Source of the DNA: an uncultured Clostridium sp.
GTDB lineage: Bacteria > Bacillota > Clostridia > TANB77 > CAG-508
Direction of reading: 5' to 3'
Length of the DNA: 51,623 bases
NCBI GenBank assembly: GCA_947061115.1
Contig: CAMSMU010000002.1
Location: 1 to 51,623, forward strand
Shown here: piece after piece, positions 4,401 through 51,623 of the stretch
Position numbering within the stretch: the stretch's first letter is position 1
Layout: each line of letters opens with the position of its first letter
Notes under the pieces: generated by a model
Databases searched by the model: none
What the model was told of the DNA's origin: nothing
Seen by the model: only the letters and a program-made list of their open reading frames with translations
Made by a program: the position numbers and the translations under genes

Positions 4401-6371
4401 ATGGAAGCAGTAAAAAATGATACAACAAATGAAAAAAATATAAGAAATAAAAGTAAAGGTAGAAGATTTAAAGAAAAAGAACCTAATAAAATAATGAAAT
4501 TTTTACCAAATAATTTATTATTTATATTTGGAATAATTTTATTATTATACAAATCTTTTTTCATAAGCAATAGTTTAGAACTTGAATTTAGTAAAGATGT
4601 TATTTTATATACAATATTAGCATCTATGCTTATAATGTGCCCAATAATTAATAAGAAAAATAAATTTGCTTACATTTATTTTACTGTTACATATATAATA
4701 GTAAATGTTATAGTTTATGCAGATTTTTTATATTATAACTATTCAAAGAATTTTCTATCAATGTATCAGATAGAAAATTTTAGATATGCAAAAGAAATAG
4801 GAGAAGGATTAGTAAGTATTGTTAATATAGATGATATATTAATATTTATAACTGATAATCTATTAATAATATTATTAAGTTTACTATTATACAAAAATTT
4901 TAAAAAGACAGTATATAAAAATAGTATTTTAAAAGCTGTATTGATATCAATAATTATTTTATCTAATATATTTGTTGTAAAAGAAAAAGTAAATAATATT
5001 TATGAAGATAAAATATATAATAAGTCACTAATAGTTCAAAACAGTTCGATTTATTATTATCATTATGAAGATGCTAAAGACTATTTAATTAGTTTATTTG
5101 TCAAAGAAGATGTAGATAATGAAAAATTAAAAAGTATTTATGAAGAAAATATAAATGAAAAAATATTGGAGACAGATTATACAGGAATAGCAAAAGATAA
5201 TAATGTTATTATTCTACAATTAGAAAGCTTAAATGAATATATTATAGGAAAGAAAGTTAATGGAAAAGAAATAACACCAAATTTAAATAAGTTTTTTGGT
5301 GAAAATATTTATTGCAGTGAAATGTATAATCAAGGTTTAGGAACTACAGCAGATTCAGAATTTGAAATGGAAAATTCAATGTATCCATTAGAAAATGGAT
5401 ATGTATTTCAAAAGTATTATAACAATAAATGGTTAGATATATATACTACATTAAGAGAAAATGAGTATTATACTTCATTCATGCATCCTAATAACAGTTC
5501 ATTTTGGAATAGAGGAGAAGTTTATAAAAAAGGATATAAAATAGATGAATATAATGATATTAATTCTTTTCCTAATATAGAAAATGCAGGGGAATTTTAT
5601 TCAGATGAAGGATTTTTCGAACAGGCAGTAGATAAAATAAATTCATATGAAGGAAAGTTCTGCACAACATTAGTAAGTATAACAACACATATACCATTTG
5701 AATTAACAGGTATTTCTGATTTAGAAAATAAATTAACATTAAATCATAATGATGTTACAGAATATGAAAATGAATATTTTAAAAATTATTTAATATCATG
5801 CAATTTTGTAGATTATGCATTCAGAAAATTTTTAAATAAATTAGAAGATACAGGACTAATGGAAAATACAATTTTAGTTGTATATGGAGACCATGGATCA
5901 GGACTTAATACTATTGAAGATATAACAAAACTATATAATGACAATAATTTAGAATTTACAGAATTTGAATATCATACAATAGATACACATATACCTTTTG
6001 GAATAAAAGTACCAGGAATAACTGAAAGTAAAAAAATAAATGAAGCAGTATCAAAAATTGATATAAAACCAACAATATTAGATTTATTAGGGATAAAAGA
6101 TGAATTTTCAATAGGAAGTAGCATATTTACAGGAAAGGATTATTCTTTTATAAAAGGATTAGGGTATGTCACAAGTAAAAACTATTGTATTAATGATAAA
6201 TATTATGACAAAATTACATTACAAGAGATAGACGAAAATGAAGATATTAAAAAAATGCAACATAAAATGGAGAGAGAAATTTATTTATCAGATACAATAA
6301 TAAAAAATGATCTAATTAGAAATAAAAGTAATTGCCAAGAGGGATGTAGCAATTGGGCAATTTCAAGGTAA
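4401..6371 (+). CDS. LTA-synthase (LtaS)/sulfatase-family membrane phosphotransferase
   Basis: N-terminal multi-TM region plus an extracellular sulfatase fold (ILQLESLNEY, ITPNLNKF, VVYGDHGSG). I start it at ATG 4401 (SD GGGAG 6 nt upstream) rather than the track's TTG at 4323. Confidence 0.8.
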   Translation: MEAVKNDTTNEKNIRNKSKGRRFKEKEPNKIMKFLPNNLLFIFGIILLLYKSFFISNSLELEFSKDVILYTILASMLIMCPIINKKNKFAYIYFTVTYIIVNVIVYADFLYYNYSKNFLSMYQIENFRYAKEIGEGLVSIVNIDDILIFITDNLLIILLSLLLYKNFKKTVYKNSILKAVLISIIILSNIFVVKEKVNNIYEDKIYNKSLIVQNSSIYYYHYEDAKDYLISLFVKEDVDNEKLKSIYEENINEKILETDYTGIAKDNNVIILQLESLNEYIIGKKVNGKEITPNLNKFFGENIYCSEMYNQGLGTTADSEFEMENSMYPLENGYVFQKYYNNKWLDIYTTLRENEYYTSFMHPNNSSFWNRGEVYKKGYKIDEYNDINSFPNIENAGEFYSDEGFFEQAVDKINSYEGKFCTTLVSITTHIPFELTGISDLENKLTLNHNDVTEYENEYFKNYLISCNFVDYAFRKFLNKLEDTGLMENTILVVYGDHGSGLNTIEDITKLYNDNNLEFTEFEYHTIDTHIPFGIKVPGITESKKINEAVSKIDIKPTILDLLGIKDEFSIGSSIFTGKDYSFIKGLGYVTSKNYCINDKYYDKITLQEIDENEDIKKMQHKMEREIYLSDTIIKNDLIRNKSNCQEGCSNWAISR

Positions 6372-6392
6372 AGGTATTTTTAGGCAAAAGTG

Positions 6393-6421
6393 TAGTAAAA
6401 ACAAAAATCATATGATACAAT
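6393..6421 (+). promoter_or_regulatory. Extended -10 promoter (TAGTAA -17 nt- TGaTACAAT) of small ORF A
   Basis: TG at 6413-6414 and TACAAT at 6416-6421. The paralogous promoter at 40372-40400 has the same geometry. Confidence 0.4.
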
Positions 6422-6450
6422 TAATAAAAACAAGAAAAAAGGAAAAACAA

Positions 6451-6501
6451 ATGAAAAACGTGAAAACACTTGATCCTGTATATATATATTGTAAGGTTTA
6501 A
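6451..6501 (+). CDS. Candidate 16-codon small ORF A (MKNVKTLDPVYIYCKV) containing a (TA)5 tract
   Basis: AGGAAA SD-like element about 7 nt upstream, own promoter and downstream terminator. Paralog at 40431-40484. Confidence 0.3.
   Translation: MKNVKTLDPVYIYCKV
6479..6489. repeat. (TA)5T microsatellite inside small ORF A
   Basis: Direct read: tatatatatat. Confidence 0.95.
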
Positions 6502-6527
6502 CAAAATAAAATTATGTAAACACAGAA

Positions 6528-6568
6528 GACTATGTCTTTTTAGAAAAGTCTAAAAGCATAGTTTTTTT
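6528..6568 (+). terminator. Intrinsic terminator after small ORF A
   Basis: Long imperfect hairpin (gactatg...catagt outer stem, ctttt(t)ag/ctaaaag inner stem) followed by T7. Confidence 0.5.
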
Positions 6569-7017
6569 GTGTGCGTGGGATAGTGGGATGGTTCCTTTTT
6601 CCAAAAAAAGGGTGTAGAAGAGACTATTAGTTGCCTGATGAAAAACATAATATTAAACAAAAGAATAATAAATTCAATAATAGAAATAATAATAAAAACA
6701 AAAATATGTGTAGACCTAAGTTCTAGTAACGACTAATAATAAGGTAGTAGATAAAAAAAGCATAAACAAATAGATATTGGAAGTAAATTTTGTAGTAATA
6801 AAATATGTAGTACTGTATCACTAACGTGGTACAGATATTTGCGTTTTAAAAAATTTAACATATATTACCAAAAATTATAACAGTATTAAAATATTAGATA
6901 GAATAATATAATAAATTTTTAATTTATTTAAACTGCGAAAAATGTTGACTTTTGCATTTTAGTGTTATATAACTTATAAAGAGATAAAAGGCATAAAATA
7001 AATGAAAGGAAGTAAAA

Positions 7018-8208: not shown

Positions 8209-10572
8209 ATGAAAAATACAAATGAAGTACCATATAAAAAATTAAAATATACTTGTAATCCAGATATATTAGACTTTGTTACAACAGAAGAATTAGATAG
8301 AAATTATGAAGGTATAGGACAAGAAAGAGGAATAGATTCTCTTAAATTTGGACTAAATGTAGATGTTAATGGATATAATCTTTATTTAGAAGGCCCTTCT
8401 GGTGTAGGAAAAACAATGTACACTAGAGATTATTTAAATAAAATTAGTAAAAATAAAAAAACACCTCAAGATTGGTGCTATGTATATAATTTTACAAATC
8501 CAAATGAACCAGTTGCAATAAACTTTCCAGCAGGTCAAGGACATGAATTTAGAGATGCTATGGAAAGATTTATTAAAGATATATTAAAAGAAATAAAATC
8601 AACATTTAATAATGAAGATTTTGAAAAAGAAAAAAATATAATTGTACAAAAATATCAAGATAAAAGAGCAAAATTATTAGAAGATTTAAATACACAATCA
8701 GCTAAATATGGTTTTCAAGTTAAGTCATCAGACACAGGTATATATATGATGCCTGTAATAGATGGCAAAGTGGTAAAGGAAGAAGAATTTGAAAAATTAG
8801 ATGATAAAATAAAAAAAGAATATGAAGAGAAATCTACTATAGTTCAGCAACAAATAATTCAAGTAATAAGCAAAATAAAAGAAATAGAACAAGAATCAGA
8901 GAAAAAAGTATCTGAATGGCAATCAAGCATAGTGTCATTATCAATAGAAGGTCATGTAACATATGTAAAATCAAAGTTCAAAAGAAGTAAAAAAATAACT
9001 CAATTTTTGGATGGTGTAAGAAAAGATATATTAAAAAATATAAATAAATTTATAACAGAAGATAAACCAGCACAAAATAGTCAACCTCGTGTTATAGAAG
9101 TTAAACCATGGGAAAATTATAAGGTAAATTTATTTGTCGATAATAGTGAAGCAGAAGGTGCTCCAGTTATAATGGATAGTAACTATAGCTTTAATAATAT
9201 ATTCGGAAGACTAGAATATGAAAGCCAATATGGAGTATTAAGAACAGATTATACTATGATAAGACCAGGATTGCTTCATAAAGCAAATGGAGGATATATT
9301 ATATTCCAGGCAAATGACTTGTTATCAAATCCAGTAACATACGATTACTTGAAAAAGGTATTAAGAAATAAAGAATTAGGAATAGATAATTCAATGGAAC
9401 AAAGATCACCAGCAGTTATGGTGTCATTAAAACCAGAACCAATACCACTAGATTTAAAAGTAATTATAATAGGAAATGAAAATGTATATCAAACATTACT
9501 TTCAGTTGATGAGGACTTTAGAAAATTATTTAAGATAAAAGTGGAATTTTCAGAAGATGCACCACTAACAGATGAAAATATTAAAAATTTAGCAAAATTT
9601 GTTCGTGGATATTGCGAAGATGATGAATTACCACATTTAGATAAATTTGCAGTAGCAAGATTAGTAGAATATTCAACAAGATTATCATCAAGCCAAAATA
9701 GAATGTCAACAAGATTTGGTGAATTAGCACAAGTAATTGCAGAATCTGCAACATGGGCTAAAATGGATAAATCAAAAGTTGTAACTAAAGATTATATAGA
9801 AAAAGCATTAGAAGAAAGAAAAAATAGACTTAAAAAATATGATGACAAATATACTCAAATGATAGAAGAAGGGACTCTCCTTATAGATACTGATGGAGAA
9901 AAAGTTGGACAAATAAATGGACTTACAGTAATGACAATAGGAGATTACTCATTTGGAAAACCAGTAAGAATTACAGTAAACACATATACGGGTAAACAAG
10001 GAATTGTAAATATAGAAAGAGAGGTTGAATTATCAGGATCAACACACTCAAAAGGTGTATTAATATTAAATGGATACTTAGGAGAAAAATTTGCAAAAGA
10101 TATGCCTTTATCACTTACAGCAAGCATATGTTTTGAACAATTATATAATGGGGTAGATGGGGATAGTGCATCAAGTACAGAACTTTACGCATTACTTTCT
10201 AATTTATCAGGAGTACCAATAAATCAAGGAATAGCAGTAACTGGATCAGTAAATCAAAAAGGAGAAATACAAGCTATTGGTGGAGTAAATGAAAAAATTG
10301 AAGGATATTTTGAAATTTGTAAATTAAAAGGCTTAAACGGAAAACAAGGTGTATTAATACCTAGACAAAATATAAGAAATTTAAGTTTAGATGATGAGAT
10401 AATATCAGCTGTAAAAAATGGGAAATTCCATATATATGCAGTATCAACAATAGATGAGGGAATAGAAATATTAACAGGTGTTCCAGCAGGTAAAAAAGAT
10501 ATTCCAGGAACAATAAATTCACTTGTTTATCAAACACTTAAAAAATATAATAAAACAAGTAAGGATGAATAA
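8209..10572 (+). CDS. Lon-like ATP-dependent protease (COG1067-type AAA+ with a C-terminal S16 domain)
   Basis: Walker A GPSGVGKT. C-terminal Lon proteolytic domain with DGDSASSTELYALLS and VTGSVNQKGEIQAIGGVNEKIEG. Confidence 0.8.
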   Translation: MKNTNEVPYKKLKYTCNPDILDFVTTEELDRNYEGIGQERGIDSLKFGLNVDVNGYNLYLEGPSGVGKTMYTRDYLNKISKNKKTPQDWCYVYNFTNPNEPVAINFPAGQGHEFRDAMERFIKDILKEIKSTFNNEDFEKEKNIIVQKYQDKRAKLLEDLNTQSAKYGFQVKSSDTGIYMMPVIDGKVVKEEEFEKLDDKIKKEYEEKSTIVQQQIIQVISKIKEIEQESEKKVSEWQSSIVSLSIEGHVTYVKSKFKRSKKITQFLDGVRKDILKNINKFITEDKPAQNSQPRVIEVKPWENYKVNLFVDNSEAEGAPVIMDSNYSFNNIFGRLEYESQYGVLRTDYTMIRPGLLHKANGGYIIFQANDLLSNPVTYDYLKKVLRNKELGIDNSMEQRSPAVMVSLKPEPIPLDLKVIIIGNENVYQTLLSVDEDFRKLFKIKVEFSEDAPLTDENIKNLAKFVRGYCEDDELPHLDKFAVARLVEYSTRLSSSQNRMSTRFGELAQVIAESATWAKMDKSKVVTKDYIEKALEERKNRLKKYDDKYTQMIEEGTLLIDTDGEKVGQINGLTVMTIGDYSFGKPVRITVNTYTGKQGIVNIEREVELSGSTHSKGVLILNGYLGEKFAKDMPLSLTASICFEQLYNGVDGDSASSTELYALLSNLSGVPINQGIAVTGSVNQKGEIQAIGGVNEKIEGYFEICKLKGLNGKQGVLIPRQNIRNLSLDDEIISAVKNGKFHIYAVSTIDEGIEILTGVPAGKKDIPGTINSLVYQTLKKYNKTSKDE

Positions 10573-12665: not shown

Positions 12666-13739
12666 ATGAGTAATAATAAAAAAATGAGAGAAAATATTGG
12701 AAAAAAGTCTAAAAAAGTATTAACAAAGAAAAAGAAAGTACTAAGGGTAATTTTAATCATTTTTATAATATTAATTGTAATAATTGCTGCAATATTAACA
12801 GCAGGATATACATTCGTTTATAGTAAATTAGGAGAAATGAATCAAGAAGAAATAAATGTAGATATAGACAAAGATATTGCTAACCAATTGTCAGGGTATA
12901 GAAATATTGCGATATTTGGAATAGATGCAAGAAAAGATGATTATGGAATGGGAAATAGAAGTGATTGCATAATGATAGCATCTATAAACAAAAAAACAAA
13001 TGAAGTAAAATTATTATCAGTATACAGAGATACATATTTGAAATTAACAGGAAGAAATTTGGATAAAGTAACACATGCATATTCATATGGTAAAGCAGAA
13101 CTAGCAGTAAGTACTTTAAATACAAATTTAGATCTAAATATTGAAGAATATGTAACAGTAAACTTTGATTCAGTAGTTGATGCAGTAGATGCTTTAGGCG
13201 GAATAAAAATGAATATAACAAGTGAAGAAGCTAAATATATTAATACATATATAGATGAAAATAATAGAGTAACAGGACATAATTCTAGTCATATAACAAA
13301 GGCTGGAACATATAACCTAGATGGAGTTCAAGCATTGGCTTATTCAAGAATACGTTATACAGCAGGAGGAGATTTTAAAAGGACAGAAAGAATGAGAGAT
13401 GTATTAGAAGCTATGCTAAAAAAAGCAAAAACATTAAGTATAAGTGAAATTCTAAATGTAGTAAATATAATGATGCCAAAAATTTCTACAAATATTAGTG
13501 CTAATGACATAATAGGTTTAGCGCCAACGTTAGTCTCAATGAATATAGGAAATAGTATAGGATGGCCACAGAAAAATAAAGGATCAACTATAGGTGGAAT
13601 ATATTATGGAGTACCAATAAATTTAGCAGAAAATGTTAAAACATTACATGAAGAATTATTTAATCAAGTAGATTATACACCATCTACAAATGTACAAAAC
13701 ATAAGTGATGAAATAATAAATAAAACTGGAGTAAAATAA
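12666..13739 (+). CDS. LytR-CpsA-Psr (LCP) family glycopolymer transferase, copy 1
   Basis: N-terminal TM helix. LCP motifs IAIFGIDAR...RSDCIMIASI and LAYSRIRY...DFKRTERMRDVL. Start moved to ATG 12666 (SD AGGAG). Confidence 0.85.
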   Translation: MSNNKKMRENIGKKSKKVLTKKKKVLRVILIIFIILIVIIAAILTAGYTFVYSKLGEMNQEEINVDIDKDIANQLSGYRNIAIFGIDARKDDYGMGNRSDCIMIASINKKTNEVKLLSVYRDTYLKLTGRNLDKVTHAYSYGKAELAVSTLNTNLDLNIEEYVTVNFDSVVDAVDALGGIKMNITSEEAKYINTYIDENNRVTGHNSSHITKAGTYNLDGVQALAYSRIRYTAGGDFKRTERMRDVLEAMLKKAKTLSISEILNVVNIMMPKISTNISANDIIGLAPTLVSMNIGNSIGWPQKNKGSTIGGIYYGVPINLAENVKTLHEELFNQVDYTPSTNVQNISDEIINKTGVK

Positions 13740-15553: not shown

Positions 15554-16342
15554 ATGAAAGATATACAAATAGTAGTGGCAACGCATAAAAAATATCAAAT
15601 GCCTAAACAAGAAATATATTTACCACTACATGTAGGGAGTAAAGGAAAAGAGAAAATTGGATACCAAACTGATGATATTGGAGATAATATTTCAGACAAA
15701 AATCCATATTTTTGTGAATTAACAGGATTATATTGGGCATGGAAAAATTTAGATGCAAAATATATTGGTTTATGCCATTATAGAAGACATTTTTCAGTAA
15801 GAAAAATAATTACAACAAATGAAAATAAGAAATTCAATAAAATACTAAATGAAAGACAAGCTAGAGAATTATTAAAAAACACAGACATAATTTTACCTAA
15901 AAAAAGAAATTATTATATAGAAAATTTATACTCACATTATAAACATACAATGTATATAGAAACATTAGATGAAACTAAAAAGATAATAGAAGAAAAATAT
16001 CCAGAATATGTAGAAGAATTTAAAAAATTACACAAAAGAAAAAAAGCACATATATTTAATATGCTTATAATGAAAAAAGAAATATTAGAAGAATATTGCA
16101 TATGGCTATTCGATATTTTATTTGAATTAGAAAATAGAATAGATGTAACCAAATATGATTCATTTCATTCAAGATTTTTTGGAAGAGTATCAGAACTTCT
16201 TTTAGATATATGGATTAATACAAACAAACTTGAATATAAAGAAATAGAGTTTGTTGATATGCAAAATATAAACTGGATAAAAAAAGGAACAGCGTTCTTA
16301 TTAGCTAAATTTACAGGAAAAAAATATACAAAAAGTTTTTAA
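15554..16342 (+). CDS. DUF4422-family glycosyltransferase
   Basis: IQIVVATHKKYQMP...YLPLHVG...ISDKNPYFCELTGLYWAWKN is the characteristic DUF4422 N-terminus. Confidence 0.75.
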   Translation: MKDIQIVVATHKKYQMPKQEIYLPLHVGSKGKEKIGYQTDDIGDNISDKNPYFCELTGLYWAWKNLDAKYIGLCHYRRHFSVRKIITTNENKKFNKILNERQARELLKNTDIILPKKRNYYIENLYSHYKHTMYIETLDETKKIIEEKYPEYVEEFKKLHKRKKAHIFNMLIMKKEILEEYCIWLFDILFELENRIDVTKYDSFHSRFFGRVSELLLDIWINTNKLEYKEIEFVDMQNINWIKKGTAFLLAKFTGKKYTKSF

Positions 16343-17621: not shown

Positions 17622-18602
17622 ATGGAAGAATTAATAACTGTAGTAGTTCCAATATATAAAGTAGAAGATTGTCTTACAATATGTATTGATTCTATATTAA
17701 GCCAAACATATAGAAATTTAGAAATTATATTAGTAGATGATGGATCACCAGATAATTGTAGTAAAATATGTGATGAATATGGAAAAAAAGATAAGCGTGT
17801 AAAAGTAATTCACAAAGAAAATGGTGGATTATCAGATGCACGAAATGCGGGAATGAAAATAGCTACAGGGAAATACATTACATTTATAGATTCAGATGAC
17901 TATGTAAGTAATGATTATGTTGAATATCTATATAATTTATTAAAAAAATATAATGTTAAATTATCAATATGTGACTTTAAAAAAGTGTGGAAAGAAACAG
18001 ATATAACAGCAAAAGAGGAAACAAAAATAGAAGTACTTAATAGTGAAAAAGCCTTTAAAAATTTATTATTTAGTCAAGGAATAGATATATCTGCATGGGC
18101 AAAATTATATCAAATAGACTTATGGGAAAATTATGAATTTCCAAAAGGAAAATGTTATGAAGATTCAGCAATAATATATAAACTAATAGATAGAGCAGAA
18201 AATGTTGCTTTTGGAAATAAGCAATGTTATTATTATGTTGCAAGACCAGGTTCTATTTCTAAACAAAAAGGGTTTAACAAAAATGAAGAAGACTATATAG
18301 AAAATACAAAACAAATGCTTAGTTTTATTAGAGAAAAATATCCAAATATAAATTCAGCAACAAATAGATATGATTTATATTCAAATTTTAGAATACTGAG
18401 AATACTAATTTTTACAAAACCAAGAAATAGAAAAATGGAGAAAATAGTTATAAAAAATATAAATCAACATAAAAAGAAAGTATTTTTGGGTAAGGAAACA
18501 CCTAAAAGAGACAAATTAGCTATAATATTTTTAAGTATGGGATTACCAGTCTTTAAAATTTTCTGGTATATATATAGTAAAATCACAGGGAGAATCTTAT
18601 AA
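17622..18602 (+). CDS. Family 2 glycosyltransferase
   Basis: VVVPIYKVEDCL...ILVDDGSPD...GLSDARNAG...FIDSDD motifs. Confidence 0.85.
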   Translation: MEELITVVVPIYKVEDCLTICIDSILSQTYRNLEIILVDDGSPDNCSKICDEYGKKDKRVKVIHKENGGLSDARNAGMKIATGKYITFIDSDDYVSNDYVEYLYNLLKKYNVKLSICDFKKVWKETDITAKEETKIEVLNSEKAFKNLLFSQGIDISAWAKLYQIDLWENYEFPKGKCYEDSAIIYKLIDRAENVAFGNKQCYYYVARPGSISKQKGFNKNEEDYIENTKQMLSFIREKYPNINSATNRYDLYSNFRILRILIFTKPRNRKMEKIVIKNINQHKKKVFLGKETPKRDKLAIIFLSMGLPVFKIFWYIYSKITGRIL

Positions 18603-18619
18603 AATTAGGAGAAAAATAT

Positions 18620-19720
18620 ATGAGTAAATATGATTATTTGATAGTAGGAGCAGGATTATTTGGATCAATATTTGCATATGAGATGACAAAAAGAGGTAAA
18701 AGCTGTCTTGTAATAGATAAAAGACCACATGTTGGAGGAAATATATACACAGAAAGAAAAGACAATATTAATGTACATAAATATGGTGCACATATATTTC
18801 ACACAAATAATAAAGAAATATGGCAATATATTAACCAATTTGCAGAATTTAATAGATATACAAATTCACCTATTGCATTATATAAAAACGAACTATATAA
18901 TATGCCATTTAATATGAATACATTTAATAAATTATGGGGAGTTAAAACACCAGAAGAAGCTAAACAAAAAATTGCAGAAGAAATAAGAGAAGCAAATATA
19001 CAAGAACCAAAAAATCTAGAAGAGCAAGCAATTAGCTTAGTAGGAAAAACGATTTATGAAAAACTTGTAAAAGGGTATACAGAAAAACAATGGGGAAGAA
19101 AATGTTCAGAATTACCAAGCTTTATTATAAAAAGATTACCTGTTAGGTTTACATATGATAACAATTATTTTAATGATAAATATCAAGGAATTCCAATAGG
19201 TGGTTATACGCAAATAATAGAAAAAATGTTAGAAAATGTAGAAGTATGGACAAATTGTGATTATTTTGATAATAAAGAGCAACTTGAAAATATAGCAAAT
19301 AAAATTATTTTTACAGGCCCAATAGATAAGTATTATAATTATAAATTTGGAGAATTAGAATATAGAAGTTTGAAATTTGAAACAGAGTTATTAAATGAAA
19401 AAAATCATCAAGGAAATGCAGTTGTAAATTATACAGAATATGAGATACCATATACAAGAATTATTGAACATAAACATTTTGAATTTGATACAATTAGTGA
19501 TAAAACCATAATAACAAAAGAATATCCAGATAATTGGACAAAAGATAAAGAACCATATTACCCTATTAATAATGATAAGAATAATGAATTATACGATAAA
19601 TACAAGCAATTAGCAGAAAAAGACAATAAAGTTATATTTGGAGGAAGATTAGGTCAATATAAATATTATGATATGGACAAAGTAATTGAAAGTGCACTTA
19701 AATGCATAACAAATATATAA
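18620..19720 (+). CDS. glf: UDP-galactopyranose mutase
   Basis: YDYLIVGAGLFGSIFA FAD fold, RPHVGGNIYT, GYTEKQWG and GRLGQYKYYDMD. Confidence 0.9.
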   Translation: MSKYDYLIVGAGLFGSIFAYEMTKRGKSCLVIDKRPHVGGNIYTERKDNINVHKYGAHIFHTNNKEIWQYINQFAEFNRYTNSPIALYKNELYNMPFNMNTFNKLWGVKTPEEAKQKIAEEIREANIQEPKNLEEQAISLVGKTIYEKLVKGYTEKQWGRKCSELPSFIIKRLPVRFTYDNNYFNDKYQGIPIGGYTQIIEKMLENVEVWTNCDYFDNKEQLENIANKIIFTGPIDKYYNYKFGELEYRSLKFETELLNEKNHQGNAVVNYTEYEIPYTRIIEHKHFEFDTISDKTIITKEYPDNWTKDKEPYYPINNDKNNELYDKYKQLAEKDNKVIFGGRLGQYKYYDMDKVIESALKCITNI

Positions 19721-19768
19721 TAATTTGTAGATACAAATTGATAAATATAGAATATATAGGAGCATAAA

Positions 19769-20785
19769 ATGATTTCAATAATAATACCAGTATATCAAGC
19801 ACAAGACTATATAGAAAGATGTTTAGAATCAATAAAAAATCAAAATGATAATAGTGATTTAGAAATAGTATGTGTAAATGATGGTTCAACAGATAATAGC
19901 AAAAAAATAATTGAAGACTTCAAATTAAAAAATAAAAATATAAAAGTAAAGATTATAGATAAGGAAAATACTGGAGTTAGTGATTCAAGAAATATAGGAA
20001 TAGAAAATGCCGAAGGTAAATACATAATGTTTGTAGATTCAGATGATGAATTAGAAACAAATGCTATAGAAGAATTACGAAAAGCTTTAAGCGATAATAT
20101 AGATGTAATAATATATAATTCATTACAAATTAAGAAAAATAATAAAAATAAAGAAAGAATTATTTTTAACGAAGAAAATGGTATTATTCCAGTAAAAAAG
20201 GTGTATGATGAACTAATAAGACATGCTGAACTAAATACTGTATGGCAATTTTTAATACTAAAAGATTTTATATTAGAAAATAAAATAAAATTTGACAATC
20301 AATATGCTGTAGGTGAAGATTTATTATTTAACTCAGATATGTTTACCTGTAATCCCCAAATATATTATCTTAATAAAATAATTTATAGATACAATTATAA
20401 TGAAAAAAGTGTAATGAGAAATTTAAAACAAGACAGTACACAAAAAAGAATAAACCAAACTTTAGAACTATATTGTAAATATTATGAATATATAAAAAAA
20501 TGGAAAATGGATAGTAAGGAAAATAGAGAGTATCTATCAAGTAAAGCAATTAATGTATTAAATTATGAACTAAGAAGTATTATATTATTGGATATTTCTA
20601 ACAAAGAAAAAATTAATATGCTGAAAGAAACTTTTGAAAATCCTAATATGATAGAAATAAGAAAAAACTTGTCAACAGATAAATACTTAATTAGAGAATC
20701 TAAGTATATATATACAAACAAAATATATTTATATTTTCTAATAAAATCATCAATTGAAATAATAAGAAAAATATTAAATGTATAA
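19769..20785 (+). CDS. Family 2 glycosyltransferase
   Basis: ISIIIPVYQAQDYI...VCVNDGSTD...GVSDSRNIG...FVDSDDE. Confidence 0.8.
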   Translation: MISIIIPVYQAQDYIERCLESIKNQNDNSDLEIVCVNDGSTDNSKKIIEDFKLKNKNIKVKIIDKENTGVSDSRNIGIENAEGKYIMFVDSDDELETNAIEELRKALSDNIDVIIYNSLQIKKNNKNKERIIFNEENGIIPVKKVYDELIRHAELNTVWQFLILKDFILENKIKFDNQYAVGEDLLFNSDMFTCNPQIYYLNKIIYRYNYNEKSVMRNLKQDSTQKRINQTLELYCKYYEYIKKWKMDSKENREYLSSKAINVLNYELRSIILLDISNKEKINMLKETFENPNMIEIRKNLSTDKYLIRESKYIYTNKIYLYFLIKSSIEIIRKILNV

Positions 20786-26733: not shown

Positions 26734-27315
26734 ATGGATAGAAGTATAGTAAATAGCTTAAAATACAGAAATAAACAAATTATATTTAGAAAGTATTCAA
26801 GAGTAACTATTGATAAGAGTGCTAATATTAGTGGAAATGGAAAAATAGCAATTGGAGATAAAGAAAATCCAAAATCAAAACAAGAAACAAGATTAAGCTT
26901 AGGAAAGAATAGCGAGTTAAATGTAAATGGAAACTTTAGTGTAGGATTTGGATCAGATATTAGAGTATTTAATAATGCAAAATTAGAAATTGGAAGCGGA
27001 TACTTAAATGCATTTGTTCAAATTGTTTGCTCTAAAAAAATATCTATAGGAAATAATGTTGCAATTGCCAGAGACGTAATAATTAGAGATACAGATGCAC
27101 ACGATATAATTGGAGAAGATCACAAAAAAGAAGCAGAAGTAAAAATAGGAAATCATGTTTGGATAGGAACTAGAGCAATTATAATGAAAGGAGTAACTAT
27201 TGGAGATGGTGCAATAGTAGGAGCAGGTGCAATAGTCACAAAAGATGTTCCAGAAAATTCAATAGTAGTAGGGGTCCCTGCAAAGGTAATAAAGGAAAAT
27301 ATAGAATGGAAGTAA
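26734..27315 (+). CDS. Left-handed beta-helix (hexapeptide) O-acetyltransferase
   Basis: [49 protein letters not shown]. Confidence 0.8.
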
Positions 27316-28511
27316 AAGAAAAAGCAAAGAAAAACCGTAGAACCCTTACAGCTGTACACACACACACACACACGGACGGTATATTTAATAAAAAGAAAAA
27401 TATAATAATTTGTGTAATAATAATATTTGTAATATTAATTTTAACAGTAATATATTCTTATAACTTTTCTAGTTACCCAATAATAGGAGGAGCAATTTCT
27501 TCATTTAATAAAGAATGTGAAGTAACAAGAGTAAAAGGAGTAGGCAATTTTCAAGAAAAAACGTATAAATGGGTAGGTGGAGTTTTAGGAAAAGATGGGT
27601 GTATATATGCAATACCAAATTGCTATGATAAAGTATTAAAGATAGATCCTGAAACTGAAAAAGTAAAAGAATTTGGTAATTTATCTAAAAATAAATTCAA
27701 ATATACTGGAGGCTGTACATACAAAGACAAAATATATGGATTTCCAAGAGCTAGTAATAAATTACTTGAAATAGATCCTAAAAAAGAAGAAGTAAAAGAG
27801 ATTGATTTAGCATTAAATTATGATGAAGATGGAAAAGACTACTATTATTCAGGCACATTATATAAAAATATAGCATATCTAGCACCTCGAAGCTCAAATC
27901 ACATATTAGCAATTAACTTAGATGATTATTCAACAAAGAAAATAGGAGAAGGAGTTGTACCAGAAAGTTATCAATATGATGGAGCAATTTTACATTATAA
28001 TGGTCTAATATACTTTTTTCCAAAAGTATATTCTCAAGTAATGGTGTTAAATCCAAAAACAGATGAAATAAAATTCATTGGCGATAAAATGAATGTACAA
28101 ATTTTTGGAGGAGCTATTGCTAAAAATGGAAATATATATTCTTTTACAGCTTATTCAGAGGGTGGAATAGTAAGAATAAATACTAAAGAAGAAAAAGTAG
28201 ATGTGATTTGCAAAGATACAGTAGAAACAGGGTTTTATGGAACAAAGTTAGCATCTAATGGAAAAATGTATGGAGTAGTAGGACATTCAAATAAAATATA
28301 TGAATTTGATCCAGAAACTGAAAAAGTAAAGGTAATAAGAGAATTAGTAAAATTAAATAATGTTGTAAGATGTGCTGGCGGAGTTTTAGATAGAAATGGA
28401 AATTTATGGTTTATACCAGCATATGGAGAAAAAATAATAAAATTAGAAATTGAACAAAAAGTGCCACTTAATAATAGAATTCTAGAATCAGTACAATTTT
28501 CTAATTACTAA
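27306..28511 (+). CDS. Membrane-anchored protein with about seven 45-aa propeller-like repeats, function unknown
   Basis: Short cytoplasmic tail, one TM helix ([18 protein letters not shown]), then repeats of the form GG-x4-(D/N)G-x-IY-x-P-x7-(L/V)-x-IDP-x-T-x-K-V. Confidence 0.6.
27356..27373. repeat. (AC)9 dinucleotide microsatellite inside codons 17-23 of the propeller-protein gene
   Basis: Direct read acacacacacacacacac, translated as HTHTHT. Confidence 0.95.
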
Positions 28512-39512: not shown

Positions 39513-40334
39513 ATGAACAAATTTAAAATTAGAGAAAAATATAAAAAAATACAAAAATTATTCGATAATATAGAAGAAGATTATATTAGTGCATTTACTG
39601 CACAGTGTGCATATTATACGATACTATCTTTTATACCATTTATCATTTTAGTAATAACTTCAATACAATACACAGGAATAGGACCAGAAACATTGTATGA
39701 TGCAATTTCAAAAGTCATACCATCAAGTATGAATGAAATGGTTTTAGGAATAGTACAAGAAGTATATTCTAAATCAATTGGTACAATATCAATCTCAATT
39801 ATATTTATAATATGGTCTGCTGGAAATGGTTTATATGCACTAACAAAAGGTCTTCAATCTATTTATAATATAGACGATAAAGAAGATGTATCATATATAT
39901 ATTTAAGAATTAAAGTAATTATAGAAACAATAATATTTATAATTCTAATAATAATAGGATTAATTGCATTAGTATTTGGAGATAAGTTAAAAGAATTTAT
40001 TCAAAACAATTTTAACTGGTTTGCAAATTATAATATTATAGTATCAATATTAACAAAAGTAGGATTTATATTTGCTACTTTTGTTGTGTTTTTACTATTA
40101 TATAAATTTATGCCAAAACACAAAGTATCAATAAAAAATCAAGTTTATGGTGCAATATTTGGAGCAGTAGCATTAAATATAGTATCATATGTATTTTCTA
40201 TATATTTAGATATATTCAAAGGATTTTCAATAACATATGGAAGTTTAACAACACTAATATTAATAATGATGTGGACATATGCATGCTTTTATACAATATT
40301 TTTAGGAGCAGAAATAAATAAATTTTTAAAATAG
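39513..40334 (+). CDS. YihY/BrkB-family membrane protein
   Basis: AFTAQCAYYTILSFIPFI... with 6 TM helices. Size and pattern fit the family. Confidence 0.75.
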   Translation: MNKFKIREKYKKIQKLFDNIEEDYISAFTAQCAYYTILSFIPFIILVITSIQYTGIGPETLYDAISKVIPSSMNEMVLGIVQEVYSKSIGTISISIIFIIWSAGNGLYALTKGLQSIYNIDDKEDVSYIYLRIKVIIETIIFIILIIIGLIALVFGDKLKEFIQNNFNWFANYNIIVSILTKVGFIFATFVVFLLLYKFMPKHKVSIKNQVYGAIFGAVALNIVSYVFSIYLDIFKGFSITYGSLTTLILIMMWTYACFYTIFLGAEINKFLK

Positions 40335-40371
40335 GACTATGGGGACGGTCTTTTTGTACAAAATAAAATTA

Positions 40372-40400
40372 TAGAAAAAAATATAACAATATGATAGAAT
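40372..40400 (+). promoter_or_regulatory. Extended -10 promoter (TAGAAA -17 nt- TGaTAGAAT) of small ORF B
   Basis: Paralogous to 6393-6421. Confidence 0.4.
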
Positions 40401-40430
40401 AAATAAAAATATTAATAAAGGAAAGAATAA

Positions 40431-40484
40431 ATGAAAAACGCTATAATACTTGAGGCTGTATATATATATATATATATATCGTAA
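40431..40484 (+). CDS. Candidate 17-codon small ORF B (MKNAIILEAVYIYIYIS) containing a (TA)10 tract
   Basis: Paralog of the ORF at 6451-6501, with conserved promoter, SD-like GGAAAG and ATGAAAAAC start. Confidence 0.3.
   Translation: MKNAIILEAVYIYIYIS
40459..40479. repeat. (TA)10T microsatellite
   Basis: Direct read, 21 nt of alternating TA. Confidence 0.95.
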
Positions 40485-40637
40485 GGTTTAATAAAACAAA
40501 ATTATGTAGTTAAGGTAAAAACTAGTAATTTAGGGGCAGAGGGGCCAGTCAAAATTGGTTAAATATAGAAAATAATAAGTATAATATATTAAATAAAACA
40601 AATAATAATAAAAATATACAAAAGCAATTAATATTAA

Positions 40638-40666
40638 TTGCAAAAATATAAGTGATATGATATAAA
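40638..40666 (+). promoter_or_regulatory. Sigma-A promoter TTGCAA -17 nt- (TGa)TATAAA for the flagellin-like gene
   Basis: Read directly. It is itself a third copy of the small-ORF promoter segment. Confidence 0.5.
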
Positions 40667-40712
40667 TAAAAAAGCAAGAAAGATAAAATGCAAAAACAAA
40701 GGAGAATGAGTT

Positions 40713-42347
40713 ATGAACAAATTAAAAAAAAATAGTAAAAATAAAGAGAATATAATAAATTATAAAATCTTTAGGGGCGATTGTCAGTCGCATACAGGAA
40801 TAACATTAATATCATTAATAGTAACAATAATAGTGTTACTGATTTTGGCAGGAATAGCAATAAATTTAAGCATAGGAGATAATGGACTATTTAATAGAGC
40901 AAAATCCGCAGTAGAAAAATATAAGATAGCAGCTAATGAAGAAAGTGAATTTTTTGAAGAATTAGATAAAAGCTTTGCAGTAGGGAATAGTAAATTACCA
41001 ATAAGAACACAGGTTATTGGTTATGATCAATATATTGATAATTGTAGTAATGGTATATCAGCAATTCAAATGTTTAATGGAGCATTAGGAGAAAATAAAT
41101 CTATAATAGAAAGAATTATATATCTAATTATTAGTGAAGACTATGATAAGAATGATGAAATTGTTATACAAGAATTGCAAGATCTAGAAAATGAATTTAA
41201 TCGTATATATGAAGAAAGTTGTTTTAAGTTTCATCAACCAATTAAAATTTATTATAATACAACTAAATATATAGAAATTTCATCAAATTTAGATCATATT
41301 AATATAGATTTTTCAACAAGTGAAACAATAAAGAATTCAGTTACAAAACTTCAAGGTGAAATGCAAAAAATTGATAATGAAATTAATGAACTCAATAAAA
41401 AAGAAGAAACGGTAAGAAAAATAATATCAGAATTAGAAATAAAAAATGAAGAATTATTAAAATATGATTATTTAGATAATATAGAATTAAAAGAAGTTGA
41501 ATTAAATGGAGAATTAGAAAGTGAAAAAATAGAATCAATTAACCAAATGTTAAAAAATATAAATGATATTATAAAATTGCAAAGTAGTTCAGAAGAAAAA
41601 CTGTCAGAAATATATAGTAAATTGTGTAGAATAAATGAGCTAATTTATAATGGATCTAATGATGAAATAATTGAAATAAAACAAGAAATTGATTTAATAG
41701 CAAATGAAATGAGAACAATAAATGAAACTTTTATAATAGATATCCAAGGAGAAAAAATAACTATTAAAATAAGAGATTTAAATACAAATTATTTAGGAAA
41801 AGATAATACTCCTTTATATTTAGATGTATCTAATAAAGAAAGATCACAAGAATCATTAGATAATGCAATTTATATTATTGATTGTGAACGAGCTAATTTA
41901 GGAGCTATATTAAATAGAGTAGACCATACAATTAAATATTATACAAGAATAAAGGATGTGTTGGAAAGTAGAATAAAAAATAAAGAAGATAGAAATAAAA
42001 GATTGGCAATTGTAAGTTTAGAAGAGATGCAATATTGTTTAGACAGGATCAGAACATTAATGATAAGAAGTCATAATGGAGTAAATTCAATAAAGGATAA
42101 GTATGGAATCAAGTTAGAGATAGATCAGATATTATTAGAAATAAATAGAATAGCAACGCATACTATGATAGAAAATGATACAGGTCTATTAAATGGTCAA
42201 TGGAATAAAAATATAAATGTAACACTTGAAAGTTTAGCTATAAAAGAAATAAATAATGATACAGAAGAAAATATTCAAGCAGGAATAAGAAAACTAGAAG
42301 AAAGTATTATTAAAATATATGAAAATCGTAAGGCATTAGCAAAATAA
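40713..42347 (+). CDS. Flagellin-homology protein with a pilin-like N-terminal hydrophobic segment. It lacks the flagellin D0/export regions.
   Basis: - Residues 29-50, GITLISLIVTIIVLLILAGIAI, are preceded by a basic leader.
- IRTQVIGYDQYIDNCSNGISAIQMFNGALGE resembles flagellin MRGQIRGL..ASKNSQDGISLIQTAEGAL.
- ERANLGAILNRVDHTI resembles flagellin RAxLGAxxNRLxxxI.
- SD AAAGGAGA lies upstream. Confidence 0.6.
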   Translation: MNKLKKNSKNKENIINYKIFRGDCQSHTGITLISLIVTIIVLLILAGIAINLSIGDNGLFNRAKSAVEKYKIAANEESEFFEELDKSFAVGNSKLPIRTQVIGYDQYIDNCSNGISAIQMFNGALGENKSIIERIIYLIISEDYDKNDEIVIQELQDLENEFNRIYEESCFKFHQPIKIYYNTTKYIEISSNLDHINIDFSTSETIKNSVTKLQGEMQKIDNEINELNKKEETVRKIISELEIKNEELLKYDYLDNIELKEVELNGELESEKIESINQMLKNINDIIKLQSSSEEKLSEIYSKLCRINELIYNGSNDEIIEIKQEIDLIANEMRTINETFIIDIQGEKITIKIRDLNTNYLGKDNTPLYLDVSNKERSQESLDNAIYIIDCERANLGAILNRVDHTIKYYTRIKDVLESRIKNKEDRNKRLAIVSLEEMQYCLDRIRTLMIRSHNGVNSIKDKYGIKLEIDQILLEINRIATHTMIENDTGLLNGQWNKNINVTLESLAIKEINNDTEENIQAGIRKLEESIIKIYENRKALAK

Positions 42348-51211: not shown

Positions 51212-51417
51212 TGTGGACTTATAATAAAACTTTACAATATCCAGTAAAAATAAAACAAAAAGACCCAAGACTTGCTAAATTTATAATATCTCAATATGGT
51301 GGTCCAGATGGAGAATTAGCAGCATCACTTAGATATTTAAGCCAAAGATTTGGAATGCCAGATCAAAATGCAAAAGCAATTCTTAATGATATAGGTACAG
51401 AAGAATGTGCACCATGA
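51211..51417 (+). pseudogene. cotJC: CotJC (manganese-catalase-family spore coat protein), interrupted after codon 65 of an expected roughly 190
   Basis: MWTYNKTLQYPVK...QYGGPDGELAASLRYLSQRF...DIGTEE matches the CotJC N-terminus. The expected (F/L)AHLEMI is replaced by CAP-stop. Confidence 0.8.
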
Positions 51418-51427
51418 TGTTGTCAAT
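51416..51427. repeat. Left arm of a 12-nt inverted repeat (GATGTTGTCAAT)
   Basis: Its partner at 51610-51621 reads GATGATGTCAAT on the opposite strand (11 of 12 match). Confidence 0.6.
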
Positions 51428-51597
51428 AGTATTCTACAAGATGAAAATGTTTACTCGATATAGAATCTTTAGGTAGATTATTTAAAATAGACAGAACTGG
51501 AATTACAAGACATATAAATAATATTTATAAAGATGAGGAATTAAAAGAAGATAGCATATGTGCAAAAATTGCACATATGGGTAACAATGGAAAATAA
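51419..51597 (+). pseudogene. Decayed fragment of a RhuM-family (virulence/DNA-binding) gene
   Basis: LGRLFKIDRTGITRHINNIYKDEELKEDSICAKIAHMGNNGK resembles the RhuM N-terminal region. The upstream piece ILQDENVYS is in another frame, and the ORF is far too short for the family. Confidence 0.45.
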
Positions 51598-51609
51598 CAG
51601 TATTTTATA

Positions 51610-51621
51610 ATTGACATCATC
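51610..51621. repeat. Right arm of the 12-nt inverted repeat (ATTGACATCATC)
   Basis: See 51416-51427. It lies 2 nt from the window end. Confidence 0.6.
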
Positions 51622-51623
51622 GC

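Follow-up and report, generated by a model that had tools for sequence, protein, structure and literature searches.

A hypermutable (TA)n tract upstream of a pilin/flagellin-like gene in a gut Firmicute: a truncated member of a multi-copy cassette family, probably of repeat-gated leader-peptide attenuators

A run of ten TA dinucleotides, enclosed in a very short open reading frame (ORF), lies upstream of a gene for a pilin/flagellin-like protein in an uncultured Clostridium, and this raises the question of whether the length of the run acts as a genetic switch for the gene. The locus in question (positions 40372-40512) belongs to a stretch of 51,623 nucleotides, hereafter the window, which has a GC content of 25%, carries nearly all of its genes on the + strand, and derives from an organism present in mouse gut metagenomes. 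Since the window encodes PolC, the spoIIIA operon and CotJA/B, its source can be identified as an endospore-forming Firmicute. The answer developed below is that the locus is a truncated member of a multi-copy cassette family, whose full members are probably best read as leader-peptide attenuators gated by a simple repeat. As for the copy at 40372-40512 itself, it most probably serves today as an upstream promoter directed at the pilin/flagellin-like gene, and the length of its tract is likely to matter little or not at all.

The module comprises a promoter-like site, a leader ORF that encloses the tract, and a conserved tail, as follows:

40372-40400, + strand: promoter-like site recovered by a promoter scan, consisting of TAGAAA, a 17-nt spacer and a TG-extended -10 box, TGATAGAAT (40392-40400); the block is kept in the paralogous module at 6.4 kb
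40420-40426, + strand: Shine-Dalgarno (SD)-like AGGAAAG, 5-10 nt upstream of the ATG, read by eye
40431-40484, + strand: leader ORF as read in frame C (the present one, by frame analysis), MKNAIILEAVYIYIYIS and then TAA 40482-40484
40459-40479, + strand: (TA)10T tract, the hypermutable element, a perfect period-2 array of 10.5 copies according to Tandem Repeats Finder (TRF)
40480-40491, + strand: conserved 12-mer CGTAAGGTTTAA, with stops in frame C (+3) and frame A (+10), and frame B open
40492-40512, + strand: conserved tail TAAAACAAAATTATGTA up to 40508, where this copy departs from the family consensus, followed by the frame-B stop TAA 40510-40512

Much of this arrangement had been proposed in a reading made from the letters alone, without database searches (the sequence-only reading). 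Its extended -10 box is recovered as TAGAAA-17-TAGAAT with an upstream TG; the GGAAAG that it placed 30 nt after this box is present (40421-40426), but stands ~20 nt from it, and it is the ATG (40431-40433) that follows at 30 nt. Its 21-nt (TA)10T tract within a 17-codon ORF and its two-frame stops in the 12-mer (TAA 40482-40484 and TAA 40489-40491) are likewise found. One additional TA unit takes the leader to the predicted ending, ...YIYRKV* at TAA 40489-40491 (frame A), and two additional units take it to ...IVRFNKTKLCS* at TAA 40510-40512 (frame B), i.e., the end of the third frame that had been said to run further. Thus, the three frame ends (40484, 40491 and 40512) fall no more than 30 nt apart and ~200 nt upstream of the gene at 40713. 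The interpretation as a small ORF is strengthened by relatives of the module in other organisms: their ATG and SD are preserved, two of their frames stop at once after the tract and the third remains open, with the canonical AAGGAG occupying the SD position in the contigs L007, L008, L016 and L018. The claimed lack of a terminator also stands: neither a promoter/terminator scan nor folds of 40372-40712 yielded a terminator-like site between the module and 40713, all hairpins there being weak. The hairpin around the tract reaches only -4 to -9.5 kcal/mol (z = +0.7 and -0.7 versus shuffles). A structure combining CUUG/UAAG with a (UA)n hairpin was entertained as a functional core and rejected, being weak and matched by equally good folds of shuffled sequence. 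The Rfam 15 covariance models gave no match at the gathering score across the whole window, and permissive local Rfam scans gave only chance-level microRNA matches.

That the tract changes length is a matter of direct observation. Alleles were drawn from public assemblies encoding an identical BrkB-family protein upstream, and they are comparisons between assembled contigs, i.e., between assemblies and not within one population. Two of these (L001 and L002, from runs X2 and X3) show 2 mismatches in 4966 and 4256 nt relative to the window, together with a 14-nt gap lying exactly in the tract, which is reduced to TATATAT (7 nt versus 21 nt in the window). This allele can be accepted as real because assembly at k=31 ties the 7-nt tract to copy-specific flanks on both sides; the same allele is also present in run X4, which belongs to a different study. 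A metatranscriptome contig (X24) across 40332-40536 is 4 nt shorter than the window, giving a 17-nt tract, an allele that is less secure since the flanks within one k-mer are short. This contig is single and of low depth, and as it starts upstream of the promoter it might represent DNA or read-through. In another contig (L004) the tract has at least 19 nt. The tract of the paralogous module is 11 nt long in the window as well as in runs X1 and X19, as against 13 nt in a JGI contig (L005); a contig of run X13 is 6 nt longer across the paralog region 6300-6676, with the insertion unlocalised, and its tract there is probably 17 nt. Among ORFs of the wider family, six groups with identical flanks differ solely in the number of YI pairs, equivalent to tracts of 19, 25 or 31 nt. 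The tract at this locus is hypermutable, with length variation between near-identical assemblies; as the length alleles sit on near-identical flanks, its length changes far faster than point substitutions accrue. The sequence-only reading had proposed a candidate slipped-strand switch and suggested comparing the tract length across related strains; a hypermutable behavior of the repeat is supported by the 7-, 21- and probably 17-nt alleles on otherwise identical flanks, with the 7-nt versus 21-nt difference showing that the length is not invariant. In eight further runs, contigs assembled at k=31 break inside long tracts and only short alleles assemble through; these breaks are no evidence of heterogeneity because the flanks are shared with other copies.

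The second copy that the sequence-only reading had pointed out in the window is indeed present and, unlike the one at 40372-40512, ends in a terminator:

6413-6501, + strand: paralogous module with -10 box TGATACAAT (6413-6421), ATG 6451, (TA)5T tract 6479-6489, TGTAAGGTTTAA and frame-A stop 6499-6501
6513-6577, + strand: intrinsic terminator of the paralog, a long hairpin followed by T7 (-20.8 kcal/mol, z = -5.0)

The product of its ORF is MKNVKTLDPVYIYCKV*, and its frame-B stop (GTC TAA, 6549-6551) falls just beyond the terminator loop. The two copies are ~80-85% identical across ~110 nt, from the -10 box to ...AAAATTATGTA, with homology ending at 40508/6518. Motif searches of the window return exactly two copies, versus 0.00-0.01 expected in shuffles, and an nhmmer search of the window with a two-copy profile found no third, except for a weak match at an (AC)9 repeat. 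Beyond the window, the genome contains tens of copies of the module: contigs of the module core have ~20-30 times the depth of unique flanks in runs X2, X3 and X4, and 26-80 times in run X1. After ...AAAATTATGTA, at the equivalent of 40508, 12 of the X1 contigs continue into AACATAGAAAACTATGTCTTTTT, a hairpin with a T run like the terminator of the paralog. It is precisely at 40508 that the window copy leaves the family consensus, and the terminator of full copies is missing from it. Downstream of the paralog stand a 33-codon gene remnant (6638-6739) and then tsaB with its own promoter. The repeat block 6642-6705 within this remnant is found at ~37 times flank depth and reads as an ORF start (MKNIILNKRIINSIIEIIIKTK...); the remnant is probably the 5' part of a multi-copy gene family that normally lies 3' of the cassette terminator in this genome. 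The stretch 6557-6640 appears to be specific to this copy, with other copies aligning on either side of it and their intervening sequence unresolved.

Searching a protein database (ENA, NCBI and JGI assemblies) with the read-through, i.e., frame-B, product recovers 172 called ORFs of 33-68 aa (e.g., MTKIAESLEAVYIYIYIVRFNKINLCEHRRKTMLFRRI). Among the matches listed (the best 120 of the 172), none is a long protein with an N-terminal ..AVYIYIYIVRFNK.., the longest having 68 aa; nor does the tract of the window locus belong to a structural gene, as in intragenic frameshift contingency loci, since the ORF around it is a distinct one, terminating 230 nt short of 40713. From the contigs retrieved, nine different copies could be read at the DNA level; they belong to at least five organisms (GC contents of 23-29%) and have YabP, YqfD and SpoVT genes in the vicinity. 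Several of the nine turned up collaterally, outside the ORF search. The family is widespread in low-GC, spore-forming gut Firmicutes. Scans for the module in metagenomes returned one contig only (L005, from the same organism), those of viral contigs returned no match, and DNA scans of genome collections returned none either, the second pattern used in the latter having required GTAAGG whereas most relatives have GTAAGA.

The copies share a common order of elements: TATAAT, often TG-extended (TATAAT or TGATATAAT in the relatives), then AAGGAG and an ATG 6-9 nt later; 9-10 codons leading into G(TA)nT and C[GA]TA[AG]G[GA]TTTAA; and, after ~25 nt, a hairpin of 16-20 bp with a U run. The tract usually has 17-25 nt. 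In all copies one frame stops at +3 and a second at +10 after the tract, while the third (frame B) is open for ~20 codons and, in seven of seven full copies, ends at +59 to +74, at the apex of the hairpin, the stop falling within the loop itself or at the upper end of one arm or the other, and the base of the hairpin spanning about +31-39 to +83-95. Tracts of 7, 13, 19 and 25 nt lead into frame B, those of 11, 17 and 23 nt into frame A, and those of 9, 15 and 21 nt into frame C. All three frames are occupied among natural copies, and the 21-nt, 7-nt and probable 17-nt alleles of the window locus each represent a different one. The two early stops persist through sequence change: the 12-mer of L016, CATAGGATTTAA, has CATAGG for CGTAAG and keeps them as TAG and TAA in the same two frames, and the rare variants G, S and I of the frame-B products at the 12-mer positions are, to judge from their codons, compatible with retained stops. 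The hairpin shows covariation, with double changes in 6 of 22 pairs across the seven copies, and the frame-B sequence VRFNKI.LC.H is highly conserved. Neither Pfam nor NCBIfam has a matching family for the leader products, and Rfam has none for the cassette. Tens of copies per genome, a widespread family, and full members with a strong terminator containing the third-frame end are all additions to the sequence-only reading.

The genes downstream of the cassettes fall into two related groups and code mostly for pilin-like or membrane-anchored surface proteins. Type IV pilin-like N-termini mark the first, with the window gene, L020_414 and a fragment in L008, and the second is a family of the form MKKLSKKQK...TM...GITIGGITGTL (TM, transmembrane segment), with L007_446, L018_434, L007_120 and the L016 Big_2 protein. 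L007_446 and L020_414 share a distant C-terminal similarity (22% over 347 aa); L020_414 also gives a weak, sub-threshold FGE-sulfatase match (E = 0.32). A promoter would not fit between the U run and the next gene in L016, L018 and L008, since only 20-45 nt separate the run from the SD of that gene; therefore, transcription of these genes must pass through the terminator.

We infer from these sequence features that the leader is translated and that its frame bears on termination. Slipped-strand mispairing would alter the n of (TA)n, and a tract of 7, 13, 19 or 25 nt would put the ribosome in frame B, carrying it through the 5' arm of the terminator to its apex. By analogy with the pil1 locus of Streptococcus gallolyticus, a ribosome at the apex would block the hairpin and transcription would read into the surface-protein gene (ON), whereas in frames A and C the ribosome would leave 28-36 nt ahead of the hairpin and transcription would terminate (OFF). 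It is because the architecture matches pil1 feature for feature that the full cassettes are proposed as (TA)n-gated attenuators.

Several observations weigh against this proposal. Tight coupling of transcription and translation is often lacking in Firmicutes, and both leader translation and frame-dependent read-through are deduced from sequence alone. The set of frame-B ORFs is biased, as most were retrieved for being open; only three full copies were found free of this open-frame bias, and all three fit the layout. The copy at 40372-40512 and one of those in L007 (L007c1) have no terminator, only the gene remnant and then tsaB with its own promoter stand 3' of the 6.4-kb paralog, and the window gene and its homolog in L020 have candidate promoters of their own, so that control by the cassette is not obligatory. 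As a separate observation, the terminator-less cassette at 5839-5990 of L007 has a read-through frame that ends in an ATGA overlap with the downstream start codon, which suggests translational coupling instead of attenuation there.

Other explanations of the family deserve to be weighed against attenuation. The sequence-only reading had offered a switch of the Haemophilus hif type, in which the tract is the spacer between a -35 element (TTGAGG, 40450-40455) and a -10 element (TAAGGT, 40482-40487). The hexamers do exist with the geometry that it gave (26 nt here versus 16 nt in the paralog), and the near-optimal 16-nt spacer of the paralog (TTGATC-TAAGGT), the 18-nt spacer produced by the L005 allele of the paralog, and the absence of a terminator 3' of the 40372-40512 copy are all in its favor. 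Yet the alleles at the locus itself would produce spacers of 12, 22 and 26 nt, with none at 16-18 nt, and family tracts of 17-25 nt translate into spacers of 22-30 nt. The supposed -10 is weak (TAAGGT, TAAGAT, and TAGGAT in L016) with no TG extension; in full copies the promoter would fire directly into the terminator, and the conserved SD, ATG and three-frame stop pattern would be left unexplained. These facts together make it very improbable. An unlikely, if less strained, option is that the unit is a phase-variable gene for a small protein, with either the basic frame-B peptide of 33-44 aa or the peptides of 16-19 aa from the other two frames being functional, the neighboring genes uncontrolled, and the terminator merely ending a monocistronic transcript. 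This would accord with a unit that has its own promoter, SD and terminator, with the conservation of VRFNKI.LC.H, with the in-frame homology of the leader to the N-terminus of the membrane protein encoded by the ORF at 27306 of the window, and with those downstream genes that have promoters of their own. What speaks against it is that the terminator stem lies within the sequence coding for the C-terminal half of the frame-B product, whose residues and length (33 to 44 aa) are altered by compensatory changes in the stem, that natural copies occupy all three frames, and that Pfam and NCBIfam hold no match to the product; the promoterless genes set close behind the U run in L016, L018 and L008 are likewise hard to explain without read-through.

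The third explanation takes the cassette as a dispersed recombination or mobile repeat—akin to repetitive extragenic palindromic (REP) or miniature inverted-repeat transposable (MITE) elements, or to a cassette boundary at which surface-protein genes are swapped—with its ORF features and TA variation being incidental. Besides the tens of copies per genome, it draws on a 2046-bp segment that stands between two direct cassette copies in L016 (9987-12200) and is absent in L017 (126-300), this segment containing the genes for a Big_2 surface protein and a PDDEXK_2/Rpn-like nuclease as well as a 65-aa ORF. A 1.1-kb indel, comprising a gene and adjoining the cassette, distinguishes L020 from L023, and REP-like GGGACGGTYC hairpins occur nearby. 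On the other hand, every copy found is upstream of, and co-oriented with, a gene or gene remnant, and an SD, ATG, early stops and open third frame conserved across species would not be predicted by a purely DNA-level role; terminal inverted repeats and target duplications were not noticed by eye, no dedicated search having been made. As a full account this is quite unlikely, and recombination between dispersed repeats is in any case compatible with attenuation by the full cassettes, which, on the balance of this evidence, is the reading that we prefer for the family.

How this bears on the window copy depends on its downstream region:

40624-40666, + strand: candidate proximal promoter, read by eye, with the perfect palindrome GCAATTAATATTAATTGC overlapping the -35 TTGCAA (40638-40643), a 17-nt spacer and TGaTATAAA (40658-40666)
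40713-42347, + strand: downstream gene coding for a protein of 544 aa with a type IV pilin-like N-terminus (..GITLISLIVTIIVLLILAG..) and flagellin-like helical segments

The perfect 18-bp palindrome GCAATTAATATTAATTGC looks like an operator from its position over the -35, and the pilin-like homolog in L020 (10190-10232) has GCAAT-N8-ATTGC at the matching place, in the same promoter arrangement. The sequence-only reading had labeled the gene flagellin-like; this is right as regards several helical segments resembling flagellin D0/D1 and the surface-type character of the protein, but leaves out its pilin-like N-terminus, and NCBIfam flagellin models score far below their cut-offs (E = 1e-23). 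The protein is a near-orphan, with one homolog at 62% identity (L006) among 5.8 billion proteins. At the locus of this full-length homolog, L006 has a decayed leader-like stretch from which the TA tract is gone, consistent with decay at this position. Separately, codons 5-7 of the window gene contain an A9 run (40724-40732) that run X4 assembles as A8, which would cause a frameshift after codon 6; this is possibly an independent homopolymer switch or a low-depth assembly error.

With the terminator lost, all frames stopping by 40512, and a candidate promoter belonging to the gene itself, control by the tract at 40372-40512 is unproven, and it may be lost. One might still imagine that this copy gates the gene through tract length by some other route, such as frame-dependent messenger RNA stability, Rho-dependent polarity, or the effect of a (UA)n hairpin on the long 5' untranslated region, given that no terminator intervenes between the module promoter and the gene, that the tract is long, perfect and polymorphic, and that a transcript-derived contig spans 40332-40536. 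This is doubtful when set beside the clustering of the three frame ends within 30 nt, ~200 nt before the gene, the tract hairpin that is no better than shuffles, the candidate promoter of the gene, and the L006 ortholog locus that has no tract. Hence our preference, for this copy, for an upstream promoter that would have outlived the switch proposed for the full cassettes.

The weak (AC)9 match noted above belongs to a different arrangement:

27333-27395, + strand: module-like leader with (AC)9 (27356-27373), from alignment, TRF and Pfam, fused in frame to the DUF6923 membrane-protein ORF 27306-28511

This ORF consists of an N-terminal transmembrane helix and DUF6923 repeats, and its start can be aligned, frame for frame, to the TA module ((HT)3..DGIFNKK versus MKNAIILEAV(YI)n VRFNK). 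Here the repeat does lie inside the coding sequence of a structural gene, as in intragenic frameshift contingency loci, and the (AC)9 leader is a candidate second switch, of the classical frameshift type. The stretch 27343-27520 is strain-variable, being absent from the four runs examined. The motif GGGA(C/T)GGT(C/T)C adjoins both modules of the window (6585-6597 and 40342-40351); in L007 there are REP-like palindromic units (TGTCAGTTGGGACGGTTCTAACTGACA) that have this motif as their loop and occur as inverted pairs between genes (2771-2812, 9853-9898, 10160-10240, 13172-13217 and 15861-15973). The same contig has a Transposase_31 (YhgA-like) gene two genes past its cassette, and L018 has, ~8 kb from its cassette, bAvd and split RVT_1 genes (18483-19825) that look like a diversity-generating retroelement. 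At the end of the window, a CotJC-like manganese-catalase ORF (51212-51623) ends abruptly at ~51417, with unrelated sequence beyond, the result of an insertion or else of a chimeric end of the contig.

A broader and more tentative generalization, which we regard as possible without leaning towards it, is that uncultured low-GC gut spore-formers possess tens of (TA)n attenuators across the genome, each switching, independently and stochastically, one of a large repertoire of pilin-like or membrane-anchored surface proteins. Each would double as a portable homology block for the insertion, deletion and shuffling of surface-protein genes, at times together with PDDEXK/Rpn-like nuclease genes. If the family does work as pil1 does, there would be a modular and widely used form of surface variation in commensal gut Firmicutes, with tens of independent switches per genome, and contingency loci would join the invertible promoters for which the group has mainly been known so far. 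The breaks of short-read assemblies at cassette sites would then be accounted for as well, and the tract length modulo 6 (7, 13, 19, 25 = ON) would predict the state of surface genes in metagenomes.

The closest known parallel is the pil1 locus of S. gallolyticus, where hypervariable GCAGA repeats sit in a leader ORF that precedes a premature terminator; OFF alleles end translation 39 bp ahead of the terminator, whereas in ON alleles the stop is reached inside it or past it, and the ribosome keeps the hairpin from forming (PMC3894217). As in pil1/pil3 (Danne et al. 2014, PMC3894217), the TA cassettes combine a promoter, an SD, an ATG-initiated leader ORF with a variable repeat, an intrinsic terminator and a surface-appendage gene. 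The OFF stop precedes the hairpin by 28-36 nt in the TA family as against 39 bp in pil1, the ON stop falls within the hairpin in both, and in both a gut Firmicute would stochastically turn surface structures ON and OFF, this being a prediction for the TA family. The region 40372-40712 itself has the promoter, SD and ATG-initiated ORF upstream of a co-oriented surface gene, together with the variable repeat, and it is the terminator that this copy, unlike pil1, does not have; one is present in the 6.4-kb paralog (6513-6577) and in seven full copies elsewhere. The differences are just as clear: a (TA) dinucleotide of ~3-15 units instead of ~22 GCAGA units; one frame in three predicted to be ON, whereas any out-of-frame change is ON in pil1; tens of copies per genome in many uncultured low-GC spore-formers versus one or two loci; and a cargo of pilin-like or transmembrane-anchored proteins versus sortase pili. 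Sequence homology between the two systems is not expected on biological grounds.

Other systems share particular elements with the TA cassettes. In Haemophilus influenzae hifA/hifB, (TA)n forms the spacer between the -35 and -10 elements of divergent promoters; here, too, a slippage-variable (TA)n adjoins a surface-appendage gene, but it lies inside a predicted leader ORF and the would-be spacers are mostly far from 16-18 nt. In Escherichia coli pyrBI, a leader ORF runs through a terminator hairpin, as it does here, and a ribosome following closely blocks the hairpin, with the coupling set by polymerase pausing that is sensitive to uridine triphosphate, whereas in the TA cassettes it would be set genetically, by the repeat-determined frame. 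In the Neisseria opa (CTCTT) and Haemophilus lic1 (CAAT) loci, the frame close to the start of the ORF depends on the length of the repeat modulo 3, a type that the (AC)9-bearing ORF at 27306 resembles. The window module differs from this type, its tract occupying an ORF of its own, 17 codons long, that lies ~230 nt ahead of the structural gene. A search of the literature turned up no report of TA-repeat leaders in Clostridia, the one precedent being that of S. gallolyticus; to our knowledge, the pili of this species are the only case in which attenuation by a leader peptide under the control of a simple repeat has been elucidated. What is new relative to pil1, thus, is the use of a different repeat in a different lineage, with massive multi-copy deployment.

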